DNA of 64,000 bases from Candidatus Nomurabacteria bacterium (GCA_023267195.1 JAHFNT010000005.1:14875-78874); one strand, 5' to 3'. Counted from the first letter of the stretch, positions 22,895-46,012 are shown. Translations and numbers: made by a program. Notes: a model not told the origin generated them from the sequence alone.

Positions 22895-25219
22895 ATGAAC
22901 ACATTTAAAACATACAAGGTAAAAGGAATGCATTGCGCGTCTTGCGCCAGTATTATTGAAAGAACTATCAAGAAAATTGAGGGGGTAGCAAATATTGAGG
23001 TGAATCCGGGCACCGAAAATGCCAAGATTTCTTTTGATACAAACAAAACCAACGCGGAACAATTTAATCAAAAACTTGAACCACTTGGTTACTCGCTACA
23101 CAATATGAACATGTCAGCAAACGCTTCGGCTGTGCTCAGTGCAAGTGATATGAATATGAGTGAAGATGAACATAAAGAGCATTTGGGACTGAATCAAACT
23201 AAAAAAGAAAAGTTGGCAGAACTGAAGGACATGAAGAATAAACTTCTTTCTCTAATTCCTATTGTGCTCATTAGTATTTTTGTAATGAGTTACGATATTT
23301 TGGCGCAGTTTAAAGTTATTGCCGAGATGTCTTATTTCTGGAATGAATTTTTCCATCATCTTTTACCAGTTTTGGCCACTTACACGCTATTTGTAGTTGG
23401 TAAGCCATACTTACTCGGCTTATATCGTTTTTTTCGTCATGGACAAGCCAACATGGACACACTTATTGGTCTCGGTACGCTAGTGGCTTTTTTATATAGT
23501 TTTATTGTTAGCGCTTTTGAAGAAAGTTTAAAGGCTTTTATAAATGTCAATCAAAGTTATTACGATGTTACTATCATTGTGATTGCTTTCATTACACTTG
23601 GAAAATATCTGGAAGCGCGTTCAAAATTAAAAACAGGCGATGCGATTGAAAAACTTTTAAATCTACAGGCGAAAACTGCTTTAGTGGTTCGCGGTGAAAG
23701 GGAAGTTGAAATTCCGGTAGATCAAGTTATGCATGGTGATATTATTATCGTAAAACCCGGGGCAAAAATTCCAGTTGATGGCCTGATTGTTTCAGGATTT
23801 TCTTATGTTGATGAATCAATGGTGACCGGCGAACCAATGCCAGTAGAAAAAAAAGAGGGAGATGCTGTAGTATCTGGGACGATTAATACAACGGGATCTT
23901 TCACTTTTAGGGCGACGAAAGTTGGTGGAGAAACTCTGCTTGCCCATATTGTGAAAATGGTGGAAGAAGCACAAGGGAGTAAGGCACCGATACAGGCTTT
24001 GGCGGACAAAATTTCCAGTATCTTTGTGCCGGTTGTTTTGGGGATTGCAGTTTTGACTTTAGTGTTATGGCTTTTAGTTGGTATGCAATATTTTGGTTTC
24101 TCCCAAGCGCTTTCTTTTGGTTTGGTTTCTTTTGTGGGGATTTTGGTTATTGCATGTCCATGCGCTCTCGGTCTGGCGACACCGACGGCAATCATTGTTG
24201 GTGTAGGCAAAGGTGCGCGCGAAGGAATTTTAATCAAAGATGCGGCAACATTGCAAAAATTACACCAAGTCAATGTAGTTGTCGTGGATAAAACAGGTAC
24301 TTTGACTATGGGGAAACCCGAGCTTATTGCAGTTAAAAATTTTTCAAATAAAAATGATGATGAGCTGGTTTCTATTCTGGCCACTTTAGAAAATAAATCA
24401 GAACACCCTATTGCTCACGCCGTAATAAATTATGCAAAATCAAAAAAGCTAAAAATTAGCGAGCTGAATGATTTTGAAATTATAAAGGGCAAAGGACTTA
24501 AAGGAAGGGTTGACGGGGTAGAATATTTTGCTGGTAATACTAGACTAATTGAGGATCTAAATCTGCCGTTTGATAAAAATCTTTTGGAAAAAGAAACCTT
24601 GGAAGGCAAGACCCCGATAATTTTGGCGAATCAAAATGCAGTGCTCTGTGTGGTTTTGATAGCGGACGCGATAAAACCGGAAGCGATCGAGGCAGTAAAT
24701 AATTTACACAAACTCGGCGTCAAAATTGTGATGTTGACAGGAGACCATAAAAATACTGCTAAATATATTGCGAAGCTTGTCGGTATTGATGATATCGTGT
24801 CGGAAGCAATGCCGGAGAGTAAATTAGATAAAATCAAAGAATTGCAAGCGGAAGGCCAGGTCGTGGCGATGGCTGGAGATGGAGTAAATGACGCACCGGC
24901 GCTCGCGCAAGCGGATGTGGGTATTGCTATGGCTACTGGGACAGATGTGGCGATTGAAAGCGCTGGCATTACACTTCTACATGGCGATATTTCCAAACTA
25001 GTGAAAGCTATAAAACTTTCTAAAATGACAATGCGTGGAATCAAGCAGAATCTTTTCTGGGCTTTTGTTTATAATATTATTGGAATTCCGCTCGCATCTG
25101 GAATTTTCTTCCCATTCTTTGGTTGGTTGCTTTCGCCAGTCTTTGCTGGGTTTGCCATGGCGATGTCTTCAGTGTCTGTGGTAGGGAATTCGCTTCGCAT
25201 TAAGAGTAAAAAATTGTAA
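22895..25219 (+). CDS. copA: copper-translocating P1B-type ATPase
   Basis: N-terminal HMA domain (GMHCASCAS), TM CPC motif ([11 protein letters not shown]), DKTGTLT phosphorylation site, GDGVNDAP hinge. Confidence 0.92.
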
Positions 25220-25265
25220 AATTATAAAGGGTCGAATTTTTATAAGCAATAATTAAAATAAATTT

Positions 25266-25385
25266 ATGATGGGATATGGATATGGTGGAATGATGGGGGG
25301 CGGTTTTGGTTCTATTGTAGCCTTAATAGTGTTGGTTGATCTTGTTTTGTTCGGTATCTGGCTTTATAAAAATATTAATAAATAA
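25266..25385 (+). CDS. unannotated 39-aa Met/Gly-rich single-TM micropeptide
   Basis: ATG at 25266, stop at 25383-25385. Encodes MMGYGYGGMMGGGFGSIVALIVLVDLVLFGIWLYKNINK. Lies directly downstream of copA. Below the ORF-track size cutoff. Confidence 0.3.
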   Translation: MMGYGYGGMMGGGFGSIVALIVLVDLVLFGIWLYKNINK

Positions 25386-25388
25386 AAA

Positions 25389-25793
25389 ATGTATTTACGG
25401 AACAGAAAATTATTCATAGGTGTTTGCATTTTACTTGCTTATATAAGCATTGGAGTATTTGGCTTGCTTAAGCTTGACCATAAGATTGAAATGCCTATGG
25501 ATAATTGTCCGTATGCCCAAAATAGTTATGCAATATGTGAGAATAGTCTTGACCATATAAATAACTGGCAGCAATTTTTAAACGCAATTTCGCCATCTCT
25601 TTTCATATTTTCAATTTTAATTCTAGGAATAGTTTTATATTTAGTTACCAAACACAATTTTTTAAATCAAAAAAGTTATTTTTATAAATGGAAGTATTGC
25701 TTATATAATAAAAAATTATATCCTTACTCGAACATAATAATAAAATGGCTAGCATTTTTTGAAAACAGCCCTTCCTTTTTCTACAGGGCGTAG
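25389..25793 (+). CDS. hypothetical membrane protein (2 TM, CPYAQNSYAIC motif)
   Basis: ORF only. Very AT-rich. No family recognised. Confidence 0.3.
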   Translation: MYLRNRKLFIGVCILLAYISIGVFGLLKLDHKIEMPMDNCPYAQNSYAICENSLDHINNWQQFLNAISPSLFIFSILILGIVLYLVTKHNFLNQKSYFYKWKYCLYNKKLYPYSNIIIKWLAFFENSPSFFYRA

Positions 25794-25877
25794 CTAATTA
25801 TTTTGTCGTAAAATTTTTAGCTTTGCCTTCTGGTCCTCATATGAGGATTTTTTACTATTCTAATTATCTACAATATT

Positions 25878-26411
25878 ATGGACAAAAAAACAATTATCTC
25901 GTTATTAATTATCTTTGCTTTTGTTGGAGGTTTAGCGTGGTGGAGTAAATCAGTATCAATAGAAGAAAAAGAATCTCGCGCATTTGAACTTGGGGGTTCG
26001 CATCTGGTAAAAATTGGCAATACGGCAAATGTGCTTACTGCCATGGAAACCTTCTATGACTTCGGTACGATCTCCATGAAGAACGGGAATGTGAGCAAAA
26101 TATTCAAGCTAACTAATTCAACAAACGAAGATATATTGGTGCCGAGCGTAAGTACTTCCTGCATGTGTACTACCGCGTATGTACTCAAGGGTGGGGTAAG
26201 AAGCAGGCCTTATGGAATGCCGGGGCACGGTGGAGCGGTTCCGAAGGCAAATGAAATTGTAAAAGCGGGCGAATCGCTTGAGATTGAAGTAGTATATGAT
26301 CCCAATGCTCACGGTCCTGCTGGTGTCGGTTTGATTGAGCGCTCTGTGTTCGTGGAAGACGAGAATACAAATGTAACAGAACTCAAGTTCAAGGTTAACG
26401 TAACCCCATAA
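25878..26411 (+). CDS. DUF1573 domain-containing exported protein
   Basis: N-terminal TM/signal. FYDFGTISMKNGNVSKIFKLTNSTNEDILVPSVSTSCMCT matches the DUF1573 core (FDFGTI...F.F.NTG...L.I..V..SCGCT). Confidence 0.65.
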   Translation: MDKKTIISLLIIFAFVGGLAWWSKSVSIEEKESRAFELGGSHLVKIGNTANVLTAMETFYDFGTISMKNGNVSKIFKLTNSTNEDILVPSVSTSCMCTTAYVLKGGVRSRPYGMPGHGGAVPKANEIVKAGESLEIEVVYDPNAHGPAGVGLIERSVFVEDENTNVTELKFKVNVTP

Positions 26412-26415
26412 AAAT

Positions 26416-27195
26416 ATGAAAAAAATTATTATTATAATCAGCCTTGTGCTAATCGCCATAATTGGCATAGTTATTCTAAAAAACAATCCCGCAACTTCGG
26501 CTATTGTTTGGAACATAAGCAAAGAAGGTACCTGGCTTTTGCCGCTTCTTTTAGTGTCGGCGATTCTAGACAGCGTGCATCCTTGTTCGTTCTCAATTCT
26601 GCTGATCACAATAGCATTTCTGTTTGGTATTCAACTTAGCCGAGAGAAAATTCTTAAATTGGGCGGAACATACATTGCTGGAATATTCACAGCCTATTTC
26701 TTGATTGGGTTGGGAATTCTGAAAGTACTTCACTTGTTCAATACTCCACACTTCATGGGTAAATTAGGATCAACACTTCTGATTACTTTCGGAGTGATAA
26801 ATATTCTAAATCGTTTTTTCCCGAAATTTCCAATCAAGTTAAAGATTCCTGGAATTTCTCACTCGGCGATGGGTCGCTTGATGGACAGAGCTTCATTTCC
26901 AGCAGTATTTGGGCTCGGATTGCTTGTCGGTATTTGCCAATTCCCATGTATGGGTGGCCCGTATCTTATGGTTATCGGGCTCTTGCGTGATCAAGTGACA
27001 TATTTGAGCGGATTTAACTACCTTCTCTTGTATAATCTTATCTTAATTATTCCTCTGGTTGTGGTGTTATTTATCTCAGCTGATAAGTTACTGGTGGAAA
27101 AAGTGCAAATTTGGAAACGCGACAATTTAGGCGGATTAAAACTCTGGACCGGTATTGCGATGATTATTATTGGTATCTTAATATTCCTTATCTAA
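26416..27195 (+). CDS. ccdA: cytochrome c-type biogenesis / thiol-disulfide transmembrane electron transporter, CcdA (DsbD family)
   Basis: Polytopic. Two conserved Cys motifs in TM helices (DSVHPCSFSILL and GICQFPCMGGPY), typical of CcdA/DsbD beta. Confidence 0.7.
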   Translation: MKKIIIIISLVLIAIIGIVILKNNPATSAIVWNISKEGTWLLPLLLVSAILDSVHPCSFSILLITIAFLFGIQLSREKILKLGGTYIAGIFTAYFLIGLGILKVLHLFNTPHFMGKLGSTLLITFGVINILNRFFPKFPIKLKIPGISHSAMGRLMDRASFPAVFGLGLLVGICQFPCMGGPYLMVIGLLRDQVTYLSGFNYLLLYNLILIIPLVVVLFISADKLLVEKVQIWKRDNLGGLKLWTGIAMIIIGILIFLI

Positions 27196-27199
27196 ATAT

Positions 27200-27694
27200 A
27201 TGACTAAAAAAATAATAGAAATAGATGAATTTATAAATAAAATAAATTCACTCAAAGAAAAAGTGGGGGTGGACATATCAACCGCCGAAGACCTGAGTAT
27301 GGCTGTGATGAATCTAATTAGCCTTGAAGAACATTTCTTTTTTACTGGCGTTAAAACAGGCAAGGATGAATATTTTGACACAACACTTGAAATACGCGAG
27401 GTGAGAAAAGACTTATTGGCCAAACTTATGCCAAATAATGAAGGCGAGACCTGGTGTATCTCAAAACACCTGTTGGCCACGACCATGCGACTTATAGAAG
27501 TTGGGAACAAACTTAATTCCGAGGGTAAAAAAGAGAAAGCCAAAGAAATCTTTCAAAAAGCGTACCAAGTATATTCGATTTTCTGGGCGCTTAAATTGAA
27601 ATTAATCAGTGGGGAGAAAATACAACAAAAAGCTAAAGACAGTTCGCGTTTGGAAGACTTGGTCGATAAATTAGCTGACTGTTGTGATGAATAG
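27200..27694 (+). CDS. hypothetical cytoplasmic protein ending in Cys-Cys-Asp-Glu
   Basis: 164 aa, no TM, C-terminal ...LADCCDE. Co-oriented and tightly packed within the metal island. Confidence 0.4.
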   Translation: MTKKIIEIDEFINKINSLKEKVGVDISTAEDLSMAVMNLISLEEHFFFTGVKTGKDEYFDTTLEIREVRKDLLAKLMPNNEGETWCISKHLLATTMRLIEVGNKLNSEGKKEKAKEIFQKAYQVYSIFWALKLKLISGEKIQQKAKDSSRLEDLVDKLADCCDE

Positions 27695-28382
27695 ATTAAA
27701 TATGAAAAATAAAATAAAAGAAATACTATATTCAGTTCTGGCTATTATTGTGATCGTATTCTTGGGTCTTGCCCCTATGGGAGAAAAAGCATTTGCCCTA
27801 AATTGGGGCAACCTGGGAATGAAAATGATGGAAGCGGGTGTGATTGATCAAGAGAAATTTGAAAATCTGTATCAGGAACGAGGTGGGCTTAACGAGGCGG
27901 ATAAAAAGTTACTCTATAGTGCGCGCAATAAAAATCTAATTATCACCCCGGAGAATTCTCACATGATGCTCAATATGCTCTGGGCCTTAGGGCTCGGAAA
28001 TAAAAATCCCATTCTTGAAAATGGGCCAATGATGGACCCACGATATGGGGGAGCAGCGAATTTCGCATCTACCGGTGGCTGGATCCTGGCTAAAGGAAAC
28101 GCAATGGATCATTACAGTATGCATGAGTTCATAAAATTAACACCCGAAGAGCAAGGGCTAGTGGAAAAAGTGGCCAAAAATATTTATCGTCCTTGCTGTA
28201 GTAATCCAGCGTATTTTCCGGATTGTAATCATGGTATGGCGATGCTAGGACTTCTTGAAATGATGGCTTCGCAAGGCGCAGCGGAAGAAGAAATGTATAA
28301 ACTTGCGACAGAAGTAAATACTCTTTGGTTTCCAGAATTACAAAAGCAACAACAAAAAGGTGGGACAGGTTGTGGAGCTTAA
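27684..28382 (+). CDS. membrane-anchored exported protein with RPCCSNP...DCNHG cysteine motif
   Basis: N-terminal TM anchor. Soluble domain with CC-X10-C-X-H and a C-terminal GGTGCGA. No family recognised. Overlaps the upstream ORF by 11 nt; an alternative ATG lies at 27702. Confidence 0.45.
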   Translation: MMNRLNMKNKIKEILYSVLAIIVIVFLGLAPMGEKAFALNWGNLGMKMMEAGVIDQEKFENLYQERGGLNEADKKLLYSARNKNLIITPENSHMMLNMLWALGLGNKNPILENGPMMDPRYGGAANFASTGGWILAKGNAMDHYSMHEFIKLTPEEQGLVEKVAKNIYRPCCSNPAYFPDCNHGMAMLGLLEMMASQGAAEEEMYKLATEVNTLWFPELQKQQQKGGTGCGA

Positions 28383-28388
28383 GTTTTT

Positions 28389-29441
28389 GTGATAAGATGT
28401 ATCTTTATTATGAGATATTATACATTTCATGTTCAAGGCACTCATTGCGCATCGTGTAAAATCTTAATTGAAGATGTTTTGGAAGAGCAAGATTTTATCA
28501 AAAGGGTGCAGGTGAATCTAAAAAGAGAAATAGTGGAAATAGAAACGGAAAGCGAAAAGAGCCCAGAAGAACTTATTGCAATCTTAAATCCAAAAATAAA
28601 ACAAAATGGCTATGTGCTTTCTCTAGATGGTTCGGCTCCTCTCACCACAGGAAAAAATACAGAAATAAAAAATGACAACAATGTGCTTTGGCAAGCGATA
28701 CCCATCGGACTTGTATTCTTAGCGTTGTTTTTTTTATTACAAAAATCTGGCATTTTAGATCTTGGCTTTGGGGGCGAGACGACGCCAGCGACCAGTTTTC
28801 TTATTGGTTTGATCGCCTCAGTTTCGAGTTGTCTGGCGGTCGTTGGTGGCTTGGTTTTGTCTTTATCCGCCAAGATATCAGAAGATGATGAAAGCGACAC
28901 AAAAACTTTTATACTTTTTCACTCCGGTAGATTGTTTAGTTTTGCCATTTTAGGTGGGGCGCTAGGATTAATAGGCAACGCTATTGGTATTAATTTTACC
29001 TTTACGGCAATATTGGGTTTGGTCGCGTCTTTAGTGATGCTATTTCTTGGTTTGAATTTAGTGGGCGTGTTTACTAAAAATAAAATAACTTTGCCGTCTG
29101 GAATTTTTAACTTCTTTAGAAAAATTGAGCACAAGACTTTTACTCCGCTCATTATTGGTTTTGCCACTTTTTTTCTGCCATGCGGATTTACCCAATCAAT
29201 GCAAGTTGTTGCACTCTCCAGCGGATCATTTGTGTCTGGGCTCTTAATTATGTTGGCTTTTGCTTTAGGAACTTTGCCTATGCTTTTATTATTATCGTTC
29301 GGGTCAGCGTCTTTTGCCCATTCAAAATATGCGCCGCTATTTTTCAAATCAGCTGGAGTGGTGGTAATAGGTCTAGGAGTATTTGCGCTGCTTGCAGGGT
29401 TGGCTGGTTTGGGAATTATAAATCCACTATTTAATATTTGA
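28389..29441 (+). CDS. HMA (heavy-metal-associated) domain fused to a DsbD_2/TauE-SafE-like polytopic permease
   Basis: N-terminal YTFHVQGTHCASCKILIE is an HMA fold with a CxxC metal site. Followed by ~8 TM helices with Cys-bearing motifs (SSCLAVVGG, FFLPCGFTQS) as in the PF13386-type family. Confidence 0.6.
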   Translation: MIRCIFIMRYYTFHVQGTHCASCKILIEDVLEEQDFIKRVQVNLKREIVEIETESEKSPEELIAILNPKIKQNGYVLSLDGSAPLTTGKNTEIKNDNNVLWQAIPIGLVFLALFFLLQKSGILDLGFGGETTPATSFLIGLIASVSSCLAVVGGLVLSLSAKISEDDESDTKTFILFHSGRLFSFAILGGALGLIGNAIGINFTFTAILGLVASLVMLFLGLNLVGVFTKNKITLPSGIFNFFRKIEHKTFTPLIIGFATFFLPCGFTQSMQVVALSSGSFVSGLLIMLAFALGTLPMLLLLSFGSASFAHSKYAPLFFKSAGVVVIGLGVFALLAGLAGLGIINPLFNI

Positions 29442-29462
29442 TTTGCTATAATTAACTATCTT

Positions 29463-29837
29463 ATGAATAAAACAGTTTCAATCATAATTACATTAGGGCT
29501 CGTTGTTGCCATCGCGATTATTTTTACCGGCGGGGGAGATAAGTTTGCAGAAAAGGTAGAAATAAGGGATGGGGTTCAATATGTCACAGTTAATGCTAAG
29601 GGTGGGTATTTCCCTAGGGTTTCAAATGCCAAAGCTGGCATTCCGACTAAACTGCTGGTGAAGACTAGTGGTACTTATGACTGTTCAGCTTCTTTGGTGA
29701 TTAAGTCCATTAATTATCAAAAAATTCTTCCCCAAAATGGAGTGACTGAAATTGATATTGGCACACCCGGGGCGGGTAAACCCCTCCAGGGAGTGTGTGG
29801 AATGGGAATGTATAGTTTTCAAGTTAATTTTCAATAG
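29463..29837 (+). CDS. cupredoxin-like (PF13473-type) exported protein
   Basis: N-terminal TM anchor. ~90-aa beta-rich domain with the C-terminal pattern C...C..GMGMY, reminiscent of Cupredoxin_1 domains (...C...GH..M). Confidence 0.45.
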   Translation: MNKTVSIIITLGLVVAIAIIFTGGGDKFAEKVEIRDGVQYVTVNAKGGYFPRVSNAKAGIPTKLLVKTSGTYDCSASLVIKSINYQKILPQNGVTEIDIGTPGAGKPLQGVCGMGMYSFQVNFQ

Positions 29838-33456: not shown

Positions 33457-34365
33457 ATGTTAAATAAAAATAAATTTATATTAACACTCGCTGGAGTTCT
33501 TGCTTTGGTTCTTATGGGGGGAGCCGTGGCTTTTGCCGAGCAGGCTGTACCGGGAGATTCGCTTTACAGAGTAAAGATTTTTGTAAATGAACCAATTGCT
33601 GGAATCTTTGCTTTATCACAAGAAGAAAAAACGGAATGGGTAGAGCGTCTGGTAGAAAGACGGCTAGAAGAATCAAGAAAACTTGCCTTCAATGGCAATC
33701 TCGATGGATCTGCAAGAGTTAATCTCCAAAATCAAATAGAAAGTAAAATTAATGAATTTAACTTAAGTGTAGGTCAGCTTGCTCTTAAAAAGGGTGAATT
33801 AACTAACGCATCAAACCTAAATATAAGACTACAGGCATCGCTTAAGGCTTATCAAAACGTGCTAGAAAAGCTTTTAGCTGATACCAACATTAAAGCAGAT
33901 ACAAAACAAGAGACCGAAAAATTAATTTTCACCCTCGCGGGATTCCAAAATGAAATGAACAATGCTAGTAAAAAAATCGAGTTGGTTAATAGGGCGGTAC
34001 TCGATTTAGCGTCGGTGCTTAATGAGCAAAGTATGGCTGAGAATTTACTAAATTCAATAAAACTTTCGTACCAAAAAGAAAAAATAAATTTATCTTTAAA
34101 TATACAAAATCAAATCAATGGCAAGCTCGCAAAAGCAGAAAATTTACTTGACGAGGGGAAGCTGTTTGTGGCCTCTGCTGATTATCAAATCGCGAATGAT
34201 AAATTTCAGTTGGTGATAACCCTAGTAAATGAAGGAAAACTTCTCTTGTTGTCTAATGTGATAAGAAGGGAAATTGATGATGGGGATGATATTAGAGAGG
34301 ATGAAGATGTTGATGACTACGGTAATTTTATTGAAGATGAAAGCTTCGAGTTCGAGGGTGACTGA
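33457..34365 (+). CDS. exported coiled-coil protein with strongly acidic C-terminal tail
   Basis: Signal peptide, ~250 aa of heptad-rich sequence, C-terminal DDGDDIREDEDVDDYGNFIEDESFEFEGD. Downstream of the MacAB-like genes. Confidence 0.45.
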   Translation: MLNKNKFILTLAGVLALVLMGGAVAFAEQAVPGDSLYRVKIFVNEPIAGIFALSQEEKTEWVERLVERRLEESRKLAFNGNLDGSARVNLQNQIESKINEFNLSVGQLALKKGELTNASNLNIRLQASLKAYQNVLEKLLADTNIKADTKQETEKLIFTLAGFQNEMNNASKKIELVNRAVLDLASVLNEQSMAENLLNSIKLSYQKEKINLSLNIQNQINGKLAKAENLLDEGKLFVASADYQIANDKFQLVITLVNEGKLLLLSNVIRREIDDGDDIREDEDVDDYGNFIEDESFEFEGD

Positions 34366-34419: not shown

Positions 34420-34920
34420 ATGAAGAAAATAGCCTTATCTTTATTTGTGATTTTTGCTTTTGCGGCATATGTACTGTATGTGCGTATTATTGGTACTAAT
34501 GTGCCATTTGTCGTATTGACACCTGAACCCAATAAGCCAAAAACAAGTTTGTCTTTGCCTAAGTATGGCGGAAATACAAATACCAATACAAATGTAACCC
34601 CAAAATCAAAATCTATACCCACGACAAACAACTTAAAGTATAAAGACGGAAATTATATTGGTAAAACAATAGATGCATATTATGGCAACGTGCAAGTAAG
34701 GGCTATAATTTCTGGCGGGAAAATAACCGACGTGCAATTTTTAGATTACCCGCAAGACAGGCAGAATTCTATCCGTATTAATACCAGGGCTATGCCATAT
34801 TTGATTAGTGAAGCCATTTCAGTTCAAGATTCAAACGTGGATACAATTTCTGGTGCATCATTTACCAGTGCCGCGTATCGTGAATCACTATCGTCTGCTC
34901 TACTGCAAGCAAAAATATAA
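34420..34920 (+). CDS. FMN-binding domain protein (flavinylation substrate), membrane-anchored/exported
   Basis: N-terminal TM. The C-terminal FMN_bind domain has the flavinylation motif DTISGASFTS (Dx[ST]GA[ST]), where the Ser/Thr is the ApbE target. Confidence 0.75.
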   Translation: MKKIALSLFVIFAFAAYVLYVRIIGTNVPFVVLTPEPNKPKTSLSLPKYGGNTNTNTNVTPKSKSIPTTNNLKYKDGNYIGKTIDAYYGNVQVRAIISGGKITDVQFLDYPQDRQNSIRINTRAMPYLISEAISVQDSNVDTISGASFTSAAYRESLSSALLQAKI

Positions 34921-34922
34921 AA

Positions 34923-35696
34923 ATGAAACAAGTGCAAATTATTATGGGAACGCCAGTCGCTGTTGAGATCGTGGATAGGGAAGCAAATCAAAAACTTTTT
35001 GATGAAGTTTTTGATTACTTTAAGTATGTGGATGAAAAGTTTAGTACCTATAAAGACACTAGTGAAATTAGCGCGATAAACAATAAAAAAAATAAAGGAG
35101 AGAATACCCAAAATATATTTGGAGGAATGAGCAAAGATATGAAAGTAGTTTTTGAATTATCTCTAGAAACAAAGAAAATAACCAATGGCTACTTTGATAT
35201 CATTACTCCAAGTGGAAGCTATGACACTTCTGGCTTGGTGAAAGGATGGGCAATTTTTAATGCCAGTAATATTCTAAAAACTCGTGGGGTAAAAAACTTT
35301 TGCGTGGAAGCCGGCGGAGATATTCAAGTTTCAGGCAGAAATGAAAAAGGAGAAGCCTGGTCTATAGGCATTCAAAATCCATTTAATAAGAAAAGGGAGA
35401 TTATAAAGAAAGTTTATCTTGGCAACAATGAAGGCATAGCTACTTCTGGCACTTACGTGCGCGGGTGCCATATATACAATCCCAAAGATAAAAATGATAA
35501 ACTAGAGGAAGTTGTGAGTCTGACAGTTATAGGTTCGAATATATTTGAAGCTGACCGCTACGCTACTGGGGCTTTCGCTATGGGACAAAATGGAATATTT
35601 TTTATAGAAAGCAAGGAAAACCTAGAAGGATACGCTATAGACAAAAACGGTGTAGCAACCATGACTATTGGCTTTAAGAAATACATCAAAGAATAA
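34923..35696 (+). CDS. apbE: FAD:protein FMN transferase
   Basis: ApbE family: IMGTPV N-terminal motif, conserved core. 257 aa, at the short end of the ApbE size range. Confidence 0.7.
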   Translation: MKQVQIIMGTPVAVEIVDREANQKLFDEVFDYFKYVDEKFSTYKDTSEISAINNKKNKGENTQNIFGGMSKDMKVVFELSLETKKITNGYFDIITPSGSYDTSGLVKGWAIFNASNILKTRGVKNFCVEAGGDIQVSGRNEKGEAWSIGIQNPFNKKREIIKKVYLGNNEGIATSGTYVRGCHIYNPKDKNDKLEEVVSLTVIGSNIFEADRYATGAFAMGQNGIFFIESKENLEGYAIDKNGVATMTIGFKKYIKE

Positions 35697-35700
35697 AATC

Positions 35701-37230
35701 ATGTTTAGATTTATAGACAACTTTTTGAATAAGACAACTATGTATAGAGTAGTTCTTTATGTTCTCTTCTTTATGTTTTGTTCTGCTTTTATGCTCGCGG
35801 TGTTCAAACTTTTACCTTACACACCCATAGACCTAATAGTATCGCTCTTGGTTATTTTATTTATTTCTTTTATGGCAAATTTTATCTTCTCTTTTGTTTA
35901 TGAAGCGCCTACTAATGTGGAATCGGTGTATATCACAGCTTTGATTTTGTTCTTCGTAATTACTCCAGCCCAAGGCGGGGTATATTCGCAGTTTTTGCCC
36001 CTGGCTTTCTGGGCCTCAGTCTGGGCCGTTGCTTCAAAATATATTTTGGCTATTAATCGCAAACACCTTTTTAATCCAGTGGCTTTTGCTATAATGCTTA
36101 CCGCTCTTACTATCAACCAATCTGCTAGTTGGTGGGTAGGCACCGAGACCATGCTGCCCTTTGTTGTTTTAGGCGGACTGCTTGTGGTTAGAAAAATTCG
36201 CCGCGCTGATATGGTAACAAGTTTTTTAATTTCGGCGCTTCTTACAATTACAATGTTAGCTGTGCTAAAAAATTCAGAAATTGTTAGCACCCTATTCAAA
36301 ACGCTTAAAGATTCAGCTTTCTTTTTCTTTGCTTTCATTATGCTTACTGAACCGCTTACTGCTCCAGCTACCTTCTGGCCTCGGATAATTTATGGCGTTT
36401 TAGTTGGGTTTTTGTTTGCACCGTCGCTACACATTGGTCCATATTTTTCGACACCCGAGTTGGCTTTGGTTATGGGAAATATATTTGCGTATTTAACAAG
36501 CCCCAAGGAGAAACTATTTTTGAAATTAAAAAAACGAGTTGAGGTAGGCGCCAATACATTTGATTTTATTTTTGAGAAAGATAAAAATTTCTCTTTTCTG
36601 CCCGGGCAGTATATGGAATGGACATTAAAACATCGTGATCCTGACACTCGCGGCAATCGCCGTTATTTTACTCTAGCCTCATCACCTACGGAGCCCGAAA
36701 TACACCTAGGCGTGAAGTTTTACCAAGAACCAAGCAGTTTCAAAAATCGCCTGCTAGCCCTGCCGACAGGTGGAGAAATGATAGCTTCCAGCAGATCTGG
36801 AGATTTTGTTATGCCGAAGAGAAAAGATCAAGGTCTGGTGTTTATTGCCGGTGGCATAGGAATTACACCATTTAGAAGTATGATCCAGTACCTAATTGAC
36901 AAAAAGGAAAAAAGAGAAATAACGTTGTTTTATTCAAACAAAAAAATTTCTGATATAGCCTATAAAGAAATATTTGACAAAGCACAAAATGAACTTGGTA
37001 TAAAAATTATTTACAATATTACCGACGAAGAAAATCTGCCGCCATCGCAATCTATTAGGAAAGGTTTTGTTGACATGGAAATTATCAAAAAAGAAGTTCC
37101 AGATTATTTGCAAAAAACTTTTTATATTTCCGGTCCGCGAAGTATGGTAGAAGCTTTCAAGAGCACCCTCCGATCTATCGGGGTTAAAAGAAGAAATATA
37201 AAAATTGATTTCTTCCCGGGTTTTGCTTAA
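35701..37230 (+). CDS. polytopic membrane protein fused to an FNR-like FAD/NAD(P)H-binding oxidoreductase domain
   Basis: N-terminal ~270 aa with ~8 TM helices. The C-terminal domain carries RRYFTLAS (RxYS FAD motif), GGIGITPF (NAD(P)-binding GGxGxxP) and a YISGP C-terminal motif. The ATG at 35701 is preferred over the ORF-track start that overlaps apbE. Confidence 0.65.
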   Translation: MFRFIDNFLNKTTMYRVVLYVLFFMFCSAFMLAVFKLLPYTPIDLIVSLLVILFISFMANFIFSFVYEAPTNVESVYITALILFFVITPAQGGVYSQFLPLAFWASVWAVASKYILAINRKHLFNPVAFAIMLTALTINQSASWWVGTETMLPFVVLGGLLVVRKIRRADMVTSFLISALLTITMLAVLKNSEIVSTLFKTLKDSAFFFFAFIMLTEPLTAPATFWPRIIYGVLVGFLFAPSLHIGPYFSTPELALVMGNIFAYLTSPKEKLFLKLKKRVEVGANTFDFIFEKDKNFSFLPGQYMEWTLKHRDPDTRGNRRYFTLASSPTEPEIHLGVKFYQEPSSFKNRLLALPTGGEMIASSRSGDFVMPKRKDQGLVFIAGGIGITPFRSMIQYLIDKKEKREITLFYSNKKISDIAYKEIFDKAQNELGIKIIYNITDEENLPPSQSIRKGFVDMEIIKKEVPDYLQKTFYISGPRSMVEAFKSTLRSIGVKRRNIKIDFFPGFA

Positions 37231-37277: not shown

Positions 37278-38096
37278 ATGTCTTTAAGTATCGGGATTGT
37301 TGGTTTGCCGAACGTGGGAAAATCCACGCTTTTTAATGCGTTGACCAAAAAAGGCGTACCGGCGGAAAATTATCCTTTTTGCACCATTGATCCATCGGTT
37401 GGGATTGTGCCGGTGCCAGACGAAAGACTCACGAAACTAACAGAGATTTCTAAATCTAAAAAAACAATCCCTGCGGTAGTTGAATTTGTGGATATCGCGG
37501 GGTTGGTGAAGGGTGCATCACTAGGCGCGGGTCTTGGAAATAAATTTCTTTCACACATTCGCGAAGTAGATGCGATTGTAGAAGTGGTGCGAATTTTTGA
37601 AGACAAAGATATGATTCACGTGCATGAGAAGATCGATCCGCTTTTTGATATTGAAGTTATAAATTTTGAACTAGAGCAGGCGGGGATTAAAAAACCGACA
37701 CTGTACGTATTAAATACTTCTGCTGTAGCTGATAACATAAAAAAAGATTTTGTATCAAAACTCCCTAGTCCTTATATTGAAGTCGATCCGATTTTTGGTA
37801 CTGGTCTAGATAATTTAATTAAAGCTGGCTACGATCTACTTAATTTAATTACCTTTTTTACGACCGGAGAAGACGAATCGCGCGCTTGGACGACAGTTCG
37901 TGGAGCGACAGCGCCGACAGCCGGAAAATCCATTCATACAGACTTTAGAGACAAATTCATTCGTGCAGAAGTGGTGGCATATGAAAAACTTATAGAAGCA
38001 GGCAGTTTTGCCAAGGCAAGAGAAAAGGGTTGGGTGCGGACAGAGGGTAAAGAATATATTGTACAAGACGGCGACGTAATAGAATTTTTGATATGA
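37278..38096 (+). CDS. ychF: Obg-family GTPase/ATPase YchF (OLA1-like), short form
   Basis: [19 protein letters not shown]1 motif, [10 protein letters not shown]-terminal TGS domain. At 272 aa it lacks most of the helical insertion of canonical 363-aa YchF. Confidence 0.7.
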
Positions 38097-40795
38097 AATT
38101 TAAAACTTTGTTTAAATCAAGTGTTTTTTTTATCAAAAAATTAGTATTTTTTAGTTTTTTTATTGTTGCTAATTTATTTTTCTTTGTATCATACGTGCAG
38201 GCAAGTTCACTCTCTAGTACTCCAGCTGATTATTGGGTGACTAATGGAACAGTTAGTGCTATTGCATTAGGGTCTGATGGCACAACTTATATTGGCGGAA
38301 GTTTTACTAGCGTTGGCTTAAATGCCGGTTACGGTGCTGCTATTGATACAATCTCTGCTGTTCCTGATCTTAATTTTCCGAATGTTAATGGAATAATTCA
38401 TGCGGTTGTCTCAGATGGTTCTGGCGGTTGGTATATAGGGGGTATTTTTACCCAAGTTGGTAGTGTTTCGAGAAATAATATTGCCCATATTCTCTCTGAC
38501 AAATCAGTAGATCTTAATTGGAATCCGAATGCTAGTAATTTGGCCGGTAATGCTACTGTTTTTGCTCTTGCCGTAAGTGGTACGACAGTTTATGTTGGTG
38601 GAAGTTTTACTACCATCGGCGGCCAAACAAGAAACCGCATTGCAGCGATCGATTCAGATGGTTTAGCGACGAGTTGGGATCCGAACGCGAATGCAACTGT
38701 AAATACTCTTGCCGTAAGTGGTACGACAGTTTATGTTGGTGGAAGTTTTACTACCATCGGCGGCCAAACAAGAAACCGCATCGCAGCGATCGATTCAGAC
38801 GGTTTAGCGACGAGTTGGGATCCGAACGCTGACAGTATTGTATATGTGCTTACTGCGAATGGTACAACAATCTACGCCGGGGGAGCCTTTACCACTATTG
38901 GTGGCCAAACCAGAAATCATATCGCAGCAATCGATTCGGACGGTCTAGCGACAAACTGGGATCCAAATGCAAATAGCGATGTACGTTCACTTGTAATAAA
39001 TGGTACAACAATCTACGCCGGGGGAGCCTTTACTACTATCGGTGGCCAAACCAGAAATCATATCGCAGCGATCGATTCAGACGGCCTGGCGACAAGCTGG
39101 AATCCAAATGCTAACTCTACTGTTAATACTCTTGCCGTCAGTGGCAGCATAGTTTACGCCGGAGGATATTTTATTACCATCGGTGGCCAAACTAGAAATC
39201 ATATCGCAGCGATCGATTCAGACGGTTTAGCTACGAGCTGGGATCCAAATACGAATGATGTTGTTCATAAAATTGCTGTAAGTGGAAACGTAGTCTATGC
39301 AGGGGGTGCTTTTGTTACCATAGGTGGTCAAACAAGAAACCGCATCGCGGCTATTGGTCCTGATGGTCTCATTACCAGTTGGAATCCAAATGCTAACTCT
39401 ACTGTTAATACTCTTGCCGTCAGTGGCAGCATAGTTTACGCCGGAGGAGATTTTACCACTATCGGCGGTCAAACTAGAAATAGTATCGCAGCGATCGATT
39501 CAGACGGCCTGGCGACAAGCTGGAATCCAAATGCTAACTCTACTGTTAATACTCTTGCCGTCAGTGGCAGCATAGTTTACGCCGGAGGATATTTTAGAAC
39601 CATCGGCGGTCAAGCAAGAAACCGTATCGCAGCGATCGATTCAGACGGCCTGGCGACAAGCTGGAATCCAAATGCCAATAGTACTATTTGGGCTCTTGCT
39701 GTAAACGGGAACGTAGTTTACACCGGGGGAGATTTTACTTCTATCGGCGGTCAAGCAAGAAACCGTATCGCAGCGATCGATTCAGACGGTTTAGCTACGA
39801 GCTGGGATCCAAATGCAAGCAATACTATTTATGCTCTTGTGGTAGATAATTCTACCGTTTACACCGGGGGAGATTTTACTTCTATCGGCGGTGAAACAAG
39901 ACGTTATGTCGCGGCTCTTGATTTAAATACTGGCCTAGCCACTTCCTGGAACCCGAACGCTAGTACTAGTATTTATGCTTTAGCTTTTAGTGGTACGGCC
40001 GTTTACGCCGGGGGAGATTTTACTTCTATCGGCGGTGAAACAAGACGTTATGTCGCGGCTCTTGATTTAAATACTGGCCTAGCCACTTCCTGGAACCCGA
40101 ACGCTGGAAGTAGTTCCGTTTGGGCTCTTGCCGCTAACGATATTGCGGTTTATGTAGGTGGGACTTTTAACGTAATTAGTGGAAATTTCCGACCAAAATT
40201 TGCCAAATTTAATAAATCTTTTAATCTTTCATATGCCCCAGGTTCCAATGGTTCAATCACTGGTTCTGTTTTACAAACAGTAAATGGCGGGGATGATGGT
40301 ACAACAGTAACAGCAGTTCCAAATTCCGGTTACCATTTCTCCGGTTGGAGTGATGGATTTCTGGTCGCTTCCAGAACTGATACAAATATTTCTAGTGACA
40401 TTACAATTACTGCAAATTTTGAAGTTGATGCATCTGTTGTTAATATATACCAAAGCAGTGGTCTCAGTGTTCCATTAATCAGTCGCCCACTTGTCACCGT
40501 TTGCGAGTCAGGACATAAATTCAATATTAAAACCGGTTTACTTTGCCCTTCTTATAAAGAAAAACCCCAGTATACATCTTTACCTTCTAGGTGTTTTGTT
40601 ACTAAGCCTATGAAGTTGGGGAGCAGGGGCAAAGATGTAAAATGTTTGCAAACTAATCTAAAAGTTGTTCCGATTACCAGTTTTTTTGGGCAAAAAACAA
40701 AATCAGCCGTTATTGCTTTTCAAAAATTACACAAACTTGTCCCAGATGGAATTGTGGGGAAGAAAACAAGAGCAGTATTAAATAATAATTTATGA
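38093..40795 (+). CDS. large exported tandem-repeat (beta-propeller-like, delta-60-type) protein with C-terminal peptidoglycan-binding domain
   Basis: N-terminal signal/TM. About 13 copies of a ~47-aa unit ([38 protein letters not shown]). The C-terminal ~60 aa resemble PG_binding_1 ([14 protein letters not shown]...GKKTRAVL). Confidence 0.65.
38566..40130 (+). repeat. intragenic near-identical tandem DNA repeats (~141-bp units and sub-repeats)
   Basis: 38566-38706 and 38707-38847 are almost identical. The unit ...aatccaaatgctaactctactgttaatactcttgccgtcagtggcagcatagtttacgccggagga... recurs near 39100, 39390 and 39520. The unit ...gattttacttctatcggcggtgaaacaagacgttatgtcgcggctcttgatttaaatactggcctagccacttcctggaacccgaacgct... 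recurs at ~39880 and ~40010. Confidence 0.8.
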
Positions 40796-43162: not shown

Positions 43163-46012
43163 ATGAGGTTGTATGATCATAAGAAAATAGAGAAAAAATG
43201 GCAAAATATTTGGGAGAAAAAGGGGATTTATCATGCTATAGACCCGGTCAAGGGCGGGGCAAGTAAACCAAAAAAGCCCAAATATTATAGCTTGATAGAA
43301 TTTCCATATCCCTCAGGGGATGGTTTGCATGTGGGTCATCCCAGGCCATATATCGGGATGGATATAATCTCAAGGAAAAGAAGGCTGCAGGGTTTTAATG
43401 TTTTGTACCCGATCGGCTGGGATGCGTTTGGTCTTCCGACGGAAAACTTTGCCATAAAGACAGGTAAGGATCCACGATTTGTTACGAAGAAAAATAGCGA
43501 AAATTTCAAACAACAGATACAATCGCTTGGAATTTCTTTTGATTGGTCTCGAGAAATAAATACAACTGATCCGAAATATTATAAATGGACACAGTGGATA
43601 TTTTTGCAGTTTTTGAAGAAAGGATTGGCCTATAAGGCCAAAATGAATATCAACTGGTGTCCGAAGGACAAGATCGGTCTTGCGAATGAAGAAGTTATAG
43701 GCGGTTGTTGCGAGCGATGTGGGGCACAGGTAGAAAAAAGAGAGAAAGAGCAGTGGGTGTTGGCGATCACTAAATATGCAGAGCGTTTAGATAAAGACTT
43801 AGATGGTGTGGATTATTTGCCACAAATTAAACTTGCTCAAAGAAATTGGATAGGGAAGTCGGAGGGTGCGGAGATAGAATTTAAGATTACGGATTATGAG
43901 TTAAAAATTAAAGTTTTCACCACTCGTCCCGATACTATTTTCGGCGCGACTTATGTTGTTTTAGCACCGGAACACCAATTGATCAATGACCTAAAATCAA
44001 GAATTTCCAACTGGACTGAAGCGGAAGATTATATTAAAAAAACAAAACAAGAAACAGAGATAGAGCGCACGGCAGAAAATAAAACAAAAACAGGAGTAGA
44101 GTTAAAAGGGGTAAAGGCGATCAATCCCGGGAGCAAAGAAGAAATTCCTATCTGGATTGCCGACTATGTGCTTGCAAATTATGGCACAGGGGCTATCATG
44201 GCTGTGCCGGCGCACGATGAAAGGGATTTTGAATTTGCGAAGAAATATAATTTGGAGATAAAGCAAGTCATTCAACCAATTTTTGGTATAGAAAATAAAA
44301 GAAAAGAAGCAGTACACAGAAACACTATTACTGGTATTGTGAAAAGTCGTGACGGGAAGAAAATTTTAATGTTAAAATGGAAAGATTATGATTGGTTAAG
44401 TGGTGTAATAGGAGGTATTGAGGGTGATGAGTCTCCAGAACAAGCAGCGGAGCGAGAAGTGTTAGAAGAAACAGGATATAAAACTAAAGCTATTTTTGTT
44501 TCCCCAATAAAAGTTGAATCGCATTTTTTTGCTGAACATAAAAATGAATGGCGTTCGAGGATAGACACCCCAGTTGTTTTGGAGTTGGTGGATGAGAAGC
44601 CAGAAATAATTTCCGAGAAAGAACAAGCAAAACATGAGGTAAGGTGGGTTGATATAAAAGAAGTTTTTGCTTCAACTATGTTTGGAAACAATAAACTTGC
44701 AATAGAATTAGCACTTTCACGAAGTGCCTATACTGGTTTTAATGGAGACCAAAGAGACTCCTTAATAAATTCTGGCAGATTTGATGGAATGGATTCCCAA
44801 AAAGCCAAGAAAGAAATTATAAAATTTGTTGAGGGAAAAGAAAAAACCACTTTCAAGCTTCGCGACTGGATATTTTCCCGTCAGCGATATTGGGGTGAGC
44901 CGATACCGGTTGTACGATGCGAGAAATGCGGGTTAGTTCCTGTGCCGGAGAAGGATCTGCCAGTAGAACTTCCAAAAGTGAAAAATTATCAGCCGACGGA
45001 TAGCGGAGAATCGCCACTCGCAAATATTTCAAAATGGGTCAATACTAAATGTCCTAAATGTAAAGGCAACGCAAAAAGGGAAACAGATACCATGCCAAAC
45101 TGGGCAGGATCCAGTTGGTATTATTTACGATACACAGATCCCAAAAATTCTAAAGAGTTTGCTGGTAAGAAAAATTTGAAATATTGGACGCCGGTAGATT
45201 GGTATAACGGAGGAAATGAACACACCACACTTCATCTTTTATATTCACGTTTTTGGCATAAATTTTTATATGATTTGAAACTAGTGCCCACAAGCGAGCC
45301 CTACATGAAACGTACCTCGCATGGGATGATTTTAGGCGAGGGGGGCGTAAAGATGTCCAAATCGCTAGGTAATGTCATAAATCCGGACGAAATGGTAAAA
45401 ATTTACGGCGCGGATACGCTTCGCATCTATGAGATGTTTATGGGGCCATTTGATCAATCTGTAGCTTGGTCTACAGAAAGTATTATTGGCGCGAGGAGAT
45501 TTATAGAAAAAATTTGGCGGTTGCAATTTAAGGTGGGTAAAACAAGCGATAGTGGAATAAAGAAAATTTTAAATAAAACCATAAAAAAAGTTTCTGAAGA
45601 TATTGAGAATATGAATTTTAATACAGCAATTTCTTCTATGATGATCTTGGCAACTGAGATAGAAAATGAAAAAAGTGTCTCAAGAGAAGACTATAAAAAA
45701 TTCTTGCAAATACTTTCTCCCTTTGCGCCGCATATAACCGAAGAATTGTGGAGCTTGCTCGGAGAGAAAAAATCTATCAATCTTTCCACTTGGCCAAAAG
45801 TGGATGAAACTTTTCTCAAGGATGAAGAAATTAAAATCGTGATTCAGATCAATGGCAAAGTCAGAGCGCAAATTATTGTGAAAGCTTCTGATCCAGAAGA
45901 AAAGATAAAAGAAAGAGTTTTTAGCGACCCCAGCGTGTTAAAACATTTAGGGAACAAGGGGATCAAAAGAACAATTTACATTAAAAATAGACTTATCAAC
46001 CTTGTGGTTTGA
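43163..46012 (+). CDS. leuS: leucyl-tRNA synthetase with an inserted Nudix hydrolase domain
   Basis: HIGH motif HVGHPRPY, KMSKS (VKMSKSLGN), CP1 editing TTRPDT...AVPAHDERD, and a LeuRS C-terminus. An extra ~150 aa (nt ~44295-44765) contains the Nudix box GGIEGDESPEQAAEREVLEETGY. Confidence 0.9.
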   Translation: MRLYDHKKIEKKWQNIWEKKGIYHAIDPVKGGASKPKKPKYYSLIEFPYPSGDGLHVGHPRPYIGMDIISRKRRLQGFNVLYPIGWDAFGLPTENFAIKTGKDPRFVTKKNSENFKQQIQSLGISFDWSREINTTDPKYYKWTQWIFLQFLKKGLAYKAKMNINWCPKDKIGLANEEVIGGCCERCGAQVEKREKEQWVLAITKYAERLDKDLDGVDYLPQIKLAQRNWIGKSEGAEIEFKITDYELKIKVFTTRPDTIFGATYVVLAPEHQLINDLKSRISNWTEAEDYIKKTKQETEIERTAENKTKTGVELKGVKAINPGSKEEIPIWIADYVLANYGTGAIMAVPAHDERDFEFAKKYNLEIKQVIQPIFGIENKRKEAVHRNTITGIVKSRDGKKILMLKWKDYDWLSGVIGGIEGDESPEQAAEREVLEETGYKTKAIFVSPIKVESHFFAEHKNEWRSRIDTPVVLELVDEKPEIISEKEQAKHEVRWVDIKEVFASTMFGNNKLAIELALSRSAYTGFNGDQRDSLINSGRFDGMDSQKAKKEIIKFVEGKEKTTFKLRDWIFSRQRYWGEPIPVVRCEKCGLVPVPEKDLPVELPKVKNYQPTDSGESPLANISKWVNTKCPKCKGNAKRETDTMPNWAGSSWYYLRYTDPKNSKEFAGKKNLKYWTPVDWYNGGNEHTTLHLLYSRFWHKFLYDLKLVPTSEPYMKRTSHGMILGEGGVKMSKSLGNVINPDEMVKIYGADTLRIYEMFMGPFDQSVAWSTESIIGARRFIEKIWRLQFKVGKTSDSGIKKILNKTIKKVSEDIENMNFNTAISSMMILATEIENEKSVSREDYKKFLQILSPFAPHITEELWSLLGEKKSINLSTWPKVDETFLKDEEIKIVIQINGKVRAQIIVKASDPEEKIKERVFSDPSVLKHLGNKGIKRTIYIKNRLINLVV

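Follow-up and report, generated by a model that had tools for sequence, protein, structure and literature searches.

A two-subunit NQR/RNF-like flavinylation module with a leaderless ApbE in a Candidatus Nomurabacteria genome

Introduction

The genome of a Candidatus Nomurabacteria bacterium (GCA_023267195.1) carries, on contig JAHFNT010000005.1, three closely packed genes encoding an FMN_bind protein, a flavin transferase of the ApbE family and a membrane protein fused to an FNR-type oxidoreductase domain. We analysed these genes within a stretch of 64 kb (positions 14875 to 78874 of the contig; hereafter the window, whose own coordinates are used throughout), in which the three-gene module occupies positions 34420-37230 of the plus strand. 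The locus raises the question of what kind of electron-transfer device so few proteins can form, and of where its flavoprotein is matured. We conclude that the module is a Patescibacteria instance of the already described NQR/RNF-like flavinylation-associated system, and that it probably corresponds to a stripped-down RnfC-D-G (or NqrF-B-C) half functioning in NQR/RNF-like electron export.

Results

Three adjacent genes with conserved order

Three tightly packed open reading frames (ORFs) follow one another on the plus strand, at 34420-34920 (166 amino acids), 34923-35696 (257 amino acids) and 35701-37230 (509 amino acids), with 2 nt between the stop codon of the FMN_bind gene and the apbE start, and 4 nt between the apbE stop codon and the ATG of the fusion gene. 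Pfam assigns PF04205 to the FMN_bind protein, PF02424 to ApbE and PF03116::PF00175 to the NqrB-RnfD::FNR fusion. A first-pass annotation of the same DNA had given these ORF coordinates and the 2-nt gap, all of which we recovered on the same strand, and had read the module as an exported or anchored FMN_bind protein, an ApbE and a membrane::FNR oxidoreductase, a composition that holds. The features discussed below are the following:

34420-34920, plus strand: NqrC/RnfG-like FMN_bind protein, 166 amino acids (PF04205, E=6e-7)
34429-34491, plus strand: predicted signal-anchor helix of the FMN_bind protein, approximately residues 4-24, after MKK
34840-34860, plus strand: ApbE target motif D141-T-I-S-G-A-S147, with S147 as predicted FMN phosphoester site
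34923-35696, plus strand: compact leaderless ApbE (FAD:protein FMN transferase), 257 amino acids (PF02424, E=1e-39)
35469-35471, plus strand: ApbE His183, equivalent by alignment to the catalytic His257 of Vibrio cholerae ApbE
35701-36504, plus strand: NqrB/RnfD-like membrane domain of the fusion protein, residues 1-268, 10 helices
36082-36150, plus strand: short external loop and next helix (residues 128-150) replacing the loop of about 72 residues of RnfD/NqrB (hhalign)
36346-36354, plus strand: T216-E217-P218, counterpart by alignment of the T-D-P of NqrB/RnfD (NqrB D346)
36514-37227, plus strand: cytoplasmic FNR/NqrF-type module for flavin adenine dinucleotide (FAD) and NAD(P)H, residues 272-509, without Fe-S domain
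36850-36870, plus strand: nucleotide-binding motif G384-G-I-G-I-T-P390 (alignment)

The gene order was compared between the window and 15 further genome loci from Patescibacteria, at 45-72% identity (16 loci). The fusion gene is present in all 16, the FMN_bind gene in 14 and the ApbE gene in 12, always in the same order, and all three stand together in the order FMN_bind-ApbE-fusion in 12 of the 16 loci, window included. This order also occurs on plasmid pB2-1-1 of Mesorhizobium sp. B2-1-1 (L016, NZ_CP083955.1, 4081-8512; 45.6% identity) and on a high-GC record (L017, NZ_CP081947.1, labelled 'Pseudomonas sp. DR48 plasmid pDR48-1', 3388-6347). Since it recurs in 12 of 16 loci and on two plasmid records of other phyla, the grouping of the three genes is not due to chance; the first-pass annotation would have given up its reading had the genes proved not to be syntenic in relatives, and they are syntenic within Patescibacteria and beyond. 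Relatives of the fusion protein number in the thousands. The top 120 are all about 475-527 amino acids long, 106 of them carry both PF00175 and PF03116, and the named sources among them are Nomurabacteria, Paceibacterota and other Patescibacteria. The membrane domain alone retrieves 345 clusters (50% identity) at E<=1e-30, most of whose full-length members have 490-515 amino acids.

An NqrB/RnfD-like membrane domain fused to an FNR-type module

The fusion protein starts at ATG 35701, in agreement with the N-termini of its homologs and with the identical database protein P0001; none of these uses the in-frame TTG at 35668. Its N-terminal part matches PF03116 (NQR2_RnfD_RnfE) with 38.2 bits, against a Pfam gathering score of 27.7, and is thus not an orphan domain. 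The AlphaFold2 (AF2) model (predicted local distance difference test, pLDDT, 82.7; predicted template modelling score, pTM, 0.78) presents ten helices, instead of the eight or so counted previously, followed by an FNR-type barrel and a Rossmann module. The best matches of the membrane fold are RnfD and NqrB, and a profile of the domain built from the 16 loci retrieves RnfD (8ahx_D, E=2.6e-5) and NqrB (7xk3_B, E=0.05) and no other family of the PDB. No match to PF01794 (ferric reductase) was detected in the fusion protein, whose membrane part has just two conserved histidines, H122 and H244. We therefore rejected a domain of the FRD/NOX/MsrQ type as well as a transporter: PF01794 is lacking and the best matches are RnfD/NqrB. 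The view that this is not a standard FRD-NOX protein holds, and comparison with known families did not yield the unrelated transporter that would have spoken against the earlier reading. As judged from sequence and predicted structure, the membrane domain is a homolog of the NqrB/RnfD redox subunit.

Segments rich in Lys and Arg (K/R) lie on the FNR side of the membrane domain, with three K/R in residues 1-16, RKIRR at 164-168 and KEKLFLKLKKR at the junction. This distribution gives a modelled topology with ten helices, both termini inside and the FNR module in the cytoplasm. The superfamily signatures N-x-E, FNP and T-[DE]-P are retained; in the last of these, E217 and P218 are invariant in the family and T216 is invariant or nearly so.

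The long RnfD/NqrB loop has no counterpart in these proteins. When the family is aligned globally with Escherichia coli RsxD by hhalign, a gap of 72 columns opens between query residues 150 and 151, and SQAT187 lies within it. HMMER anchors the H-x-F-N-P-A of the family on the FNPA of NqrB 202-205 and RnfD 121-124, and its alignments resume at NqrB 272 and RnfD 221, the region of NqrB T236 being missing. The fusion protein contains no [ST]GA[ST] motif. According to these alignments, the loop of about 72 residues that bears the flavinylated Thr in RnfD/NqrB is deleted in the fusion protein. The segment N-Q-S-A-S143-W-W was considered as a vestigial flavinylation site and rejected: it aligns with V-Q-M-T-S-W-L of RsxD, at the end of the preceding helix, and position 143 varies between S, T, N, I and G across the family.

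The C-terminal FNR module matches PF00175 (NAD_binding_1, E=2e-16). Residues G384, G385, I386, G387, T389 and P390 of its nucleotide-binding motif are invariant in the family alignment, and the motif of the RxY[ST] type reads R321-Y-F-T324 here, so that the FNR-type domain with RxYS-type and GGxGxxP motifs noticed previously is found again.

A tethered FMN_bind protein with a conserved target motif

The FMN_bind protein combines an N-terminal anchor helix of the NqrC/RnfG type, a low-complexity linker and a globular C-terminal domain for flavin mononucleotide (FMN) that carries the target motif; it matches the solved FMN-binding domain 8p2a with a phmmer E-value of 2.4e-12. The call of export or anchoring is based on hydropathy and charge: the helix reaches a Kyte-Doolittle 19-residue mean of 2.28, is predicted to be oriented N-in, C-out, and its N-flank carries a charge of +2 in 12 of 14 homologs and of +1 in the remaining two. 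All homologs share MKK, the hydrophobic helix, a Pro/Thr/Ser-rich linker of 29-134 residues and the FMN_bind fold. The anchor helix is almost the same in the window and in Mesorhizobium (MKQIALSLFVIAASGAYV versus MKKIALSLFVIFAFAAYV), which suggests a specific helix-helix contact instead of a disposable signal peptide. Its conservation between Patescibacteria and Mesorhizobium also lends indirect support to a docking of the FMN_bind partner in which the covalent FMN would reach the FMN pocket of the NqrB-like subunit.

The motif DTISGASFTS occupies residues 141-150 and conforms to D-x-x-[ST]-G-A-[ST]; apart from a chance SGAS in enolase, it is the sole ApbE-type motif in the window. In alignments, its S147 segment corresponds to SGAT in 8p2a and TGAT in E. 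coli RsxG, and [ST]-G-A-[ST] is kept in 14 of 14 homologs, within V-x-x-[VI]-[ST]-G-A-[ST] located about 20 residues before the C-terminus. The earlier description of an exported FMN_bind protein bearing DTISGASFTS therefore agrees with the PF04205 match, the anchor helix and the motif, and the doubt that the Ser/Thr might not be conserved is removed by the homologs. We predict that the protein is exported or membrane-anchored and flavinylated on S147. The high-GC record differs in that its FMN_bind protein has a lipobox, VAGC, and a degenerate motif, A-G-S-S.

A compact ApbE without leader

The AF2 model of the ApbE (pLDDT 92, pTM 0.90) has FmnB (7f2u_B) as its best Foldseek match (E=4e-19, TMq 0.84) and can be superposed on every solved ApbE, Ftp and FmnB structure, with TM-scores of 0.78-0.85 when normalised to the query; normalisation to the targets, which exceed the window protein by some 60 residues, gives about 0.67. 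Besides the fold, the protein has the catalytic His and the D-x-x-A-T-G metal/FAD-binding segment. H183 aligns with the corresponding His in 6nxi and with Gly in 6nxj (the H257G mutant); H183, D211 and T215 are invariant in the family alignment, and the catalytic motif H-x-x-[DN]-P is found in 119 of 120 ApbE homologs.

We detected neither a signal peptide nor a lipobox in the window ApbE, in which no 19-residue stretch attains the hydropathy threshold. The frame is closed upstream by an in-frame TGA at 34881-34883, and in the AF2 model the first core beta-strand begins at residue 2. The 11 ApbEs found in the related loci all start like that of the window, so that the enzyme is leaderless in 12 of 12 clusters, window included, and its 120 closest homologs (214-263 amino acids) never have a hydrophobic N-terminus (0/120). 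The same is true of the Mesorhizobium ApbE (240 amino acids) and of the ApbE of the high-GC record (290 amino acids), although in the latter the adjoining FMN_bind gene encodes a lipobox protein. The ApbEs of the NQR/RNF-like clusters examined are thus compact (about 240-290 amino acids) and leaderless in every relative, across three phyla. With a closed frame, a strand beginning at residue 2 and all relatives alike, the absent leader is not an annotation artefact; the first-pass annotation had pointed it out for the window, and it extends to the 12 clusters and the 120 homologs. A recoding event that would fuse ApbE to FMN_bind was also considered and rejected: the window would need a -1 shift, yet the two genes are in frame in locus L004, and the ApbE frame is open just 3-5 codons upstream in L001, L004 and L006, which leaves no consistent mechanism.

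Relation to known systems

Meheust et al. (2021; PMC8238504, section 13 and supplementary file 2) defined the NQR/RNF-like system by a PF03116::PF00175 fusion in an ApbE/FMN_bind cluster. They reported 127 such clusters, mainly from Actinobacteria and the candidate phyla radiation (CPR), six of them with VIT1, and proposed a one-way transfer from NAD(P)H to extracytosolic FMN. Huang et al. (2024; PMC10979944, section 8) modelled the Ktedonobacter complex by AlphaFold-multimer as two subunits in which the NqrB/RnfD flavinylation site is lost and the covalent FMN of the partner docks near the NqrB-like pocket. In the window, a single protein carries an N-terminal PF03116 and a C-terminal NqrF-like PF00175; ApbE and an FMN_bind protein with a predicted signal or anchor are encoded within five genes of it; and there are only two structural subunits, as judged from the Pfam matches of the 59 main ORFs that encode 100 amino acids or more. 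No RnfA, RnfB, RnfC, RnfE, NqrA, NqrD or NqrE was detected by Pfam in the 64-kb window, nor in the flanks of the 15 related loci. Parts, lost flavinylation site, lineage and proposed function are those of the published system, and nothing essential differs. The novelty claimed for the module in the first-pass annotation is overstated, since the system was described in 2021 with CPR members; the window adds only one more instance. Three features go beyond the text of the two papers (PMC8238504, PMC10979944): the compact leaderless ApbE, the FMN_bind anchor helix conserved across phyla, and the location of the module near a Cu-type island in the window and two close relatives, not near VIT1.

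The module shares with Rnf and Na+-NQR the RnfD/NqrB fold and signatures, an RnfG/NqrC-like partner, an NqrF-like FAD/NAD module and maturation by ApbE. These complexes have six subunits, whereas the module has two and lacks the [2Fe-2S] switch RnfA/E (NqrD/E), RnfB, RnfC/NqrA and the 2Fe-2S domain of the NqrF type; the RnfD/NqrB loop that bears the Thr for covalent FMN is missing, and the dehydrogenase follows the RnfD-like domain as a C-terminal fusion. Electrons take a semicircular course in Rnf and Na+-NQR, and a one-way outward course is proposed here. The MsrQ-like and FRD::FNR systems resemble the module in linking cytoplasmic NAD(P)H through a transmembrane conduit to a flavinylated extracytosolic protein, with a C-terminal PF00175, but their conduit is a six-helix di-heme PF01794 domain with four conserved histidines in two pairs, instead of an RnfD/NqrB fold with two. 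In the extracellular electron transfer system of the monoderm Listeria (Ndh2, EetA/B, PplA, FmnB), an ApbE-type enzyme likewise attaches flavin to a tethered FMN_bind protein, which reduces acceptors outside the cell; electrons there take a route through the quinone pool and EetA/B, whereas here NAD(P)H would be wired through one polypeptide, and FmnB is an exported lipoprotein supplied with FAD via an ECF transporter (PMC9973259), whereas the window ApbE has no export signal. A leaderless ApbE is shared with cytoplasmic systems (the fumarate reductase of Klebsiella pneumoniae, the acrylate reductase of Vibrio harveyi and the ApbE domain of trypanosomatid FRD), whose targets are soluble cytoplasmic reductases, while the only target motif here is on a protein of the signal-anchor/lipobox kind.

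A putative outward electron path and its alternatives

Domain identities, folds, topology logic, motif conservation, loop loss, synteny and the absence of the other Rnf/Nqr subunits make up the basis from which we infer cofactor content, direction of flow, acceptor, ion coupling and site of flavinylation. The cytoplasmic FNR/NqrF-type module would oxidise NAD(P)H and reduce its own FAD, replacing RnfC or NqrF as the entry point, and electrons would then traverse the membrane via the fused ten-helix domain. RnfD/NqrB binds riboflavin close to its cytoplasmic face and FMN close to its outer one, at a distance of about 8 Å (PMC12174285); by homology, the ten-helix domain is expected to keep the cytoplasm-side riboflavin-type site and the outer FMN pocket. 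Because the loop carrying the covalent FMN is lost, the outer pocket is probably served by the FMN that ApbE would attach to S147 of the tethered FMN_bind partner. The flavinylated domain would finally hand electrons to an extracytosolic acceptor. The chain from NAD(P)H through FAD and the membrane to an extracytosolic FMN, put forward by the first-pass annotation, is the published NQR/RNF-like model. For the acceptor, our best contextual guess is a metal such as Fe(III) or Cu(II), the hints being the VIT-family and cytochrome b neighbours in Mesorhizobium and the Cu-type island in the window. The gene content of the window is glycolytic and fermentative (GAPDH, 2-hydroxyacid dehydrogenase), which is consistent with a need for an NADH sink.

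Should the published model be correct, this two-protein device would be the simplest wire known to lead from NAD(P)H in the cytoplasm to the outside of the cell and, in Patescibacteria, which lack respiratory chains, could act as an electron sink for fermentation or in surface metal reduction. Carriage by the cultured Mesorhizobium sp. B2-1-1 makes the model genetically tractable, with a link to iron through the VIT neighbour.

Several points nevertheless weigh against outward export. A leaderless ApbE in every relative is at odds with extracytosolic flavinylation; an Fe-S bridge such as RnfC uses to reach riboflavin is lacking in the FNR module; apart from DUF5667 in five loci, no conserved fourth gene, terminal reductase or acceptor-specific gene stands beside the module in the 16 loci; the literature searched yielded no experimental study on the NQR/RNF-like system; and electrons in Rnf/Nqr normally run in the opposite direction, from RnfG to RnfD and from outside to inside (PMC12174285).

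The direction of flow is the matter on which the alternatives first divide. Electrons could come from a reductant outside the cell (flavins or quinones in reduced form, or a donor derived from a host) and pass through FMN_bind and the RnfD-like domain to NAD(P)+, as in the RnfG-RnfD-RnfC branch of Rnf, an idea to which the reversibility of FNR-type modules lends itself, as does the life of Patescibacteria as epibionts with few routes for making reductant. The path from the FMN of RnfG/NqrC to the FMN of RnfD/NqrB, to riboflavin and to the cytoplasm is moreover the physiological one in Rnf/Nqr (PMC12174285). We regard inward flow as improbable: transfer from flavin to NAD(P)+ would be isoenergetic at best and the window holds no energising RnfA/E/B, its glycolytic and fermentative genes make NADH and need sinks, and the VIT-family neighbour in Mesorhizobium fits outward metal reduction. 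An energy-conserving ion pump, with the Na+/H+ path of NqrB/RnfD kept and electron disposal secondary, would draw on the position of NqrB/RnfD as leading candidate for the ion path (PMC12174285, section 18), on the T-D-P acid (NqrB D346) kept as invariant E217 and on the gate residue F338, whose equivalent is the invariant F209. However, both the RnfA/E (NqrD/E) switch and an RnfG/NqrC that shuttles between two stations are believed to be required for coupling in Rnf/Nqr; RnfA/E and the second station are absent here and the equivalent of F342 is Ile213, so that we hold a pump to be very doubtful.

The lack of a leader on ApbE (in 12 of 12 clusters, in 120 of 120 homologs and in two further phyla) would be explained if the FMN_bind protein were flavinylated and retained inside, the module acting as a membrane-tethered NAD(P)H:acceptor reductase similar to the ApbE-dependent fumarate and acrylate reductases. 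Cytoplasmic ApbEs with cytoplasmic FMN_bind targets are established (PMC12052999, section 6; bioRxiv 10.1101/2022.01.20.477176). Such an arrangement has little likelihood in our view, given the MKK and hydrophobic helix that the FMN_bind protein has in common with NqrC/RnfG, its Pro/Thr/Ser-rich linker of envelope type and the VAGC lipobox of its high-GC homolog; in addition, the FMN pocket of RnfD/NqrB is periplasmic (PMC12174285), and the published multimer model docks the flavinylation site there (PMC10979944). Outward export through the NqrB/RnfD-like domain remains our preferred reading.

Where could the flavin be attached?

Characterised extracytosolic ApbEs are exported lipoproteins, and leaderless ApbEs act on cytoplasmic targets (PMC12052999). 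With an export path, the leaderless ApbE clade might load FMN cytoplasmically onto the C-terminal motif before Sec export of the target, as a class-wide trait, or else ApbE might leave the cell by a non-classical route; we put this forward tentatively, as possible but short of probable. The third way out, a cytoplasmic FMN_bind domain, appears unlikely because of the homology to NqrC/RnfG and the anchor, linker and lipobox features of these proteins. Flavinylation before export, or non-classical export of ApbE, would, if true, be a new biogenesis route for extracytosolic flavoproteins, and with cytoplasmic flavinylation the cell would not have to export FAD, as would suit the minimal genomes of Patescibacteria. 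The pairing of a leaderless ApbE with an exported-looking target bears on where and how extracytosolic flavoproteins mature. The absence of the ApbE leader is not discussed in the text of PMC8238504 or PMC10979944, and no mention of ApbE was found in the top-ranked Patescibacteria literature.

Operon and gene neighbourhood

Solely from the 2-nt and 4-nt spacings, we infer that the three genes form an operon. Promoter-like matches are not enriched relative to shuffled sequences (13 found, 13.5 expected), and terminator-like matches (7 found versus 2.8 expected) were rejected as operon limits since each is situated within coding sequence. Directly upstream of the module is the following gene:

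33457-34365, plus strand: DUF5667 secreted protein (PF18915, E=6e-7)

This protein has a signal sequence, coiled-coil-like repeats and a highly acidic C-terminus. Its gene is possibly co-transcribed with the module, in which its membership is uncertain; it precedes the module in only 5 of the 16 loci, namely the window and its four closest relatives, and no other conserved neighbour was found across the 16 loci.

Further upstream, at 22895-29837 on the plus strand, the window contains a Cu-type metal island that encodes a P-type ATPase with an HMA domain, a DUF1573 protein, a CcdA/DsbD-like protein with six transmembrane helices (no Pfam match), a Cys-rich protein of 232 amino acids, an HMA::DsbD_2 fusion and a cupredoxin-like protein of 124 amino acids. 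Homologs of HMA::DsbD_2 abut the module in two of the related loci, L001 (7531-12180, minus strand) and L002 (364-3680, minus strand), in differing orientations, and a homolog of the cupredoxin-like protein abuts it in L001. The proximity could reflect a functional link through metal reduction or merely the shared synteny of close relatives.

In Mesorhizobium, the module has a cytochrome b gene and a VIT-family gene as divergent neighbours, with a two-component system and a PepSY protein downstream, and a DUF2231 gene is annotated nearby (L016, 11382-11849). A DUF2231-like membrane protein, read from sequence, is also encoded divergently upstream of the fusion gene in L005 (5464-7548, Paceibacterota), where that gene is solitary, with no FMN_bind or ApbE gene within 6 kb. 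The high-GC record L017 is an unannotated 19-kb sequence, very GC-rich, with an arginyl-tRNA synthetase-like ORF read from translation; its composition points to an actinobacterial origin, and the 'Pseudomonas plasmid' label may be mis-assigned.

Downstream of the module in the window, a YchF-type GTPase (37278-38096, plus strand) has only 272 amino acids, with MMR_HSR1 and YchF-GTPase_C domains, and its stop codon overlaps the next start by 4 nt. Canonical YchF has about 360 amino acids and a central helical domain, which the window protein would lack. The next gene (38093-40795, plus strand) encodes a secreted protein of 900 amino acids, probably a cell-surface or adhesion protein by its sequence, in which many near-identical DUF5122 beta-propeller repeats precede an InlB B-repeat-like domain and, at the C-terminus, a PG_binding_1 domain. 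Finally, a leucyl-tRNA synthetase of 949 amino acids (43163-46012, plus strand) contains a NUDIX domain (PF00293, residues 390-503, E=5.5e-12) inserted right after the editing domain.

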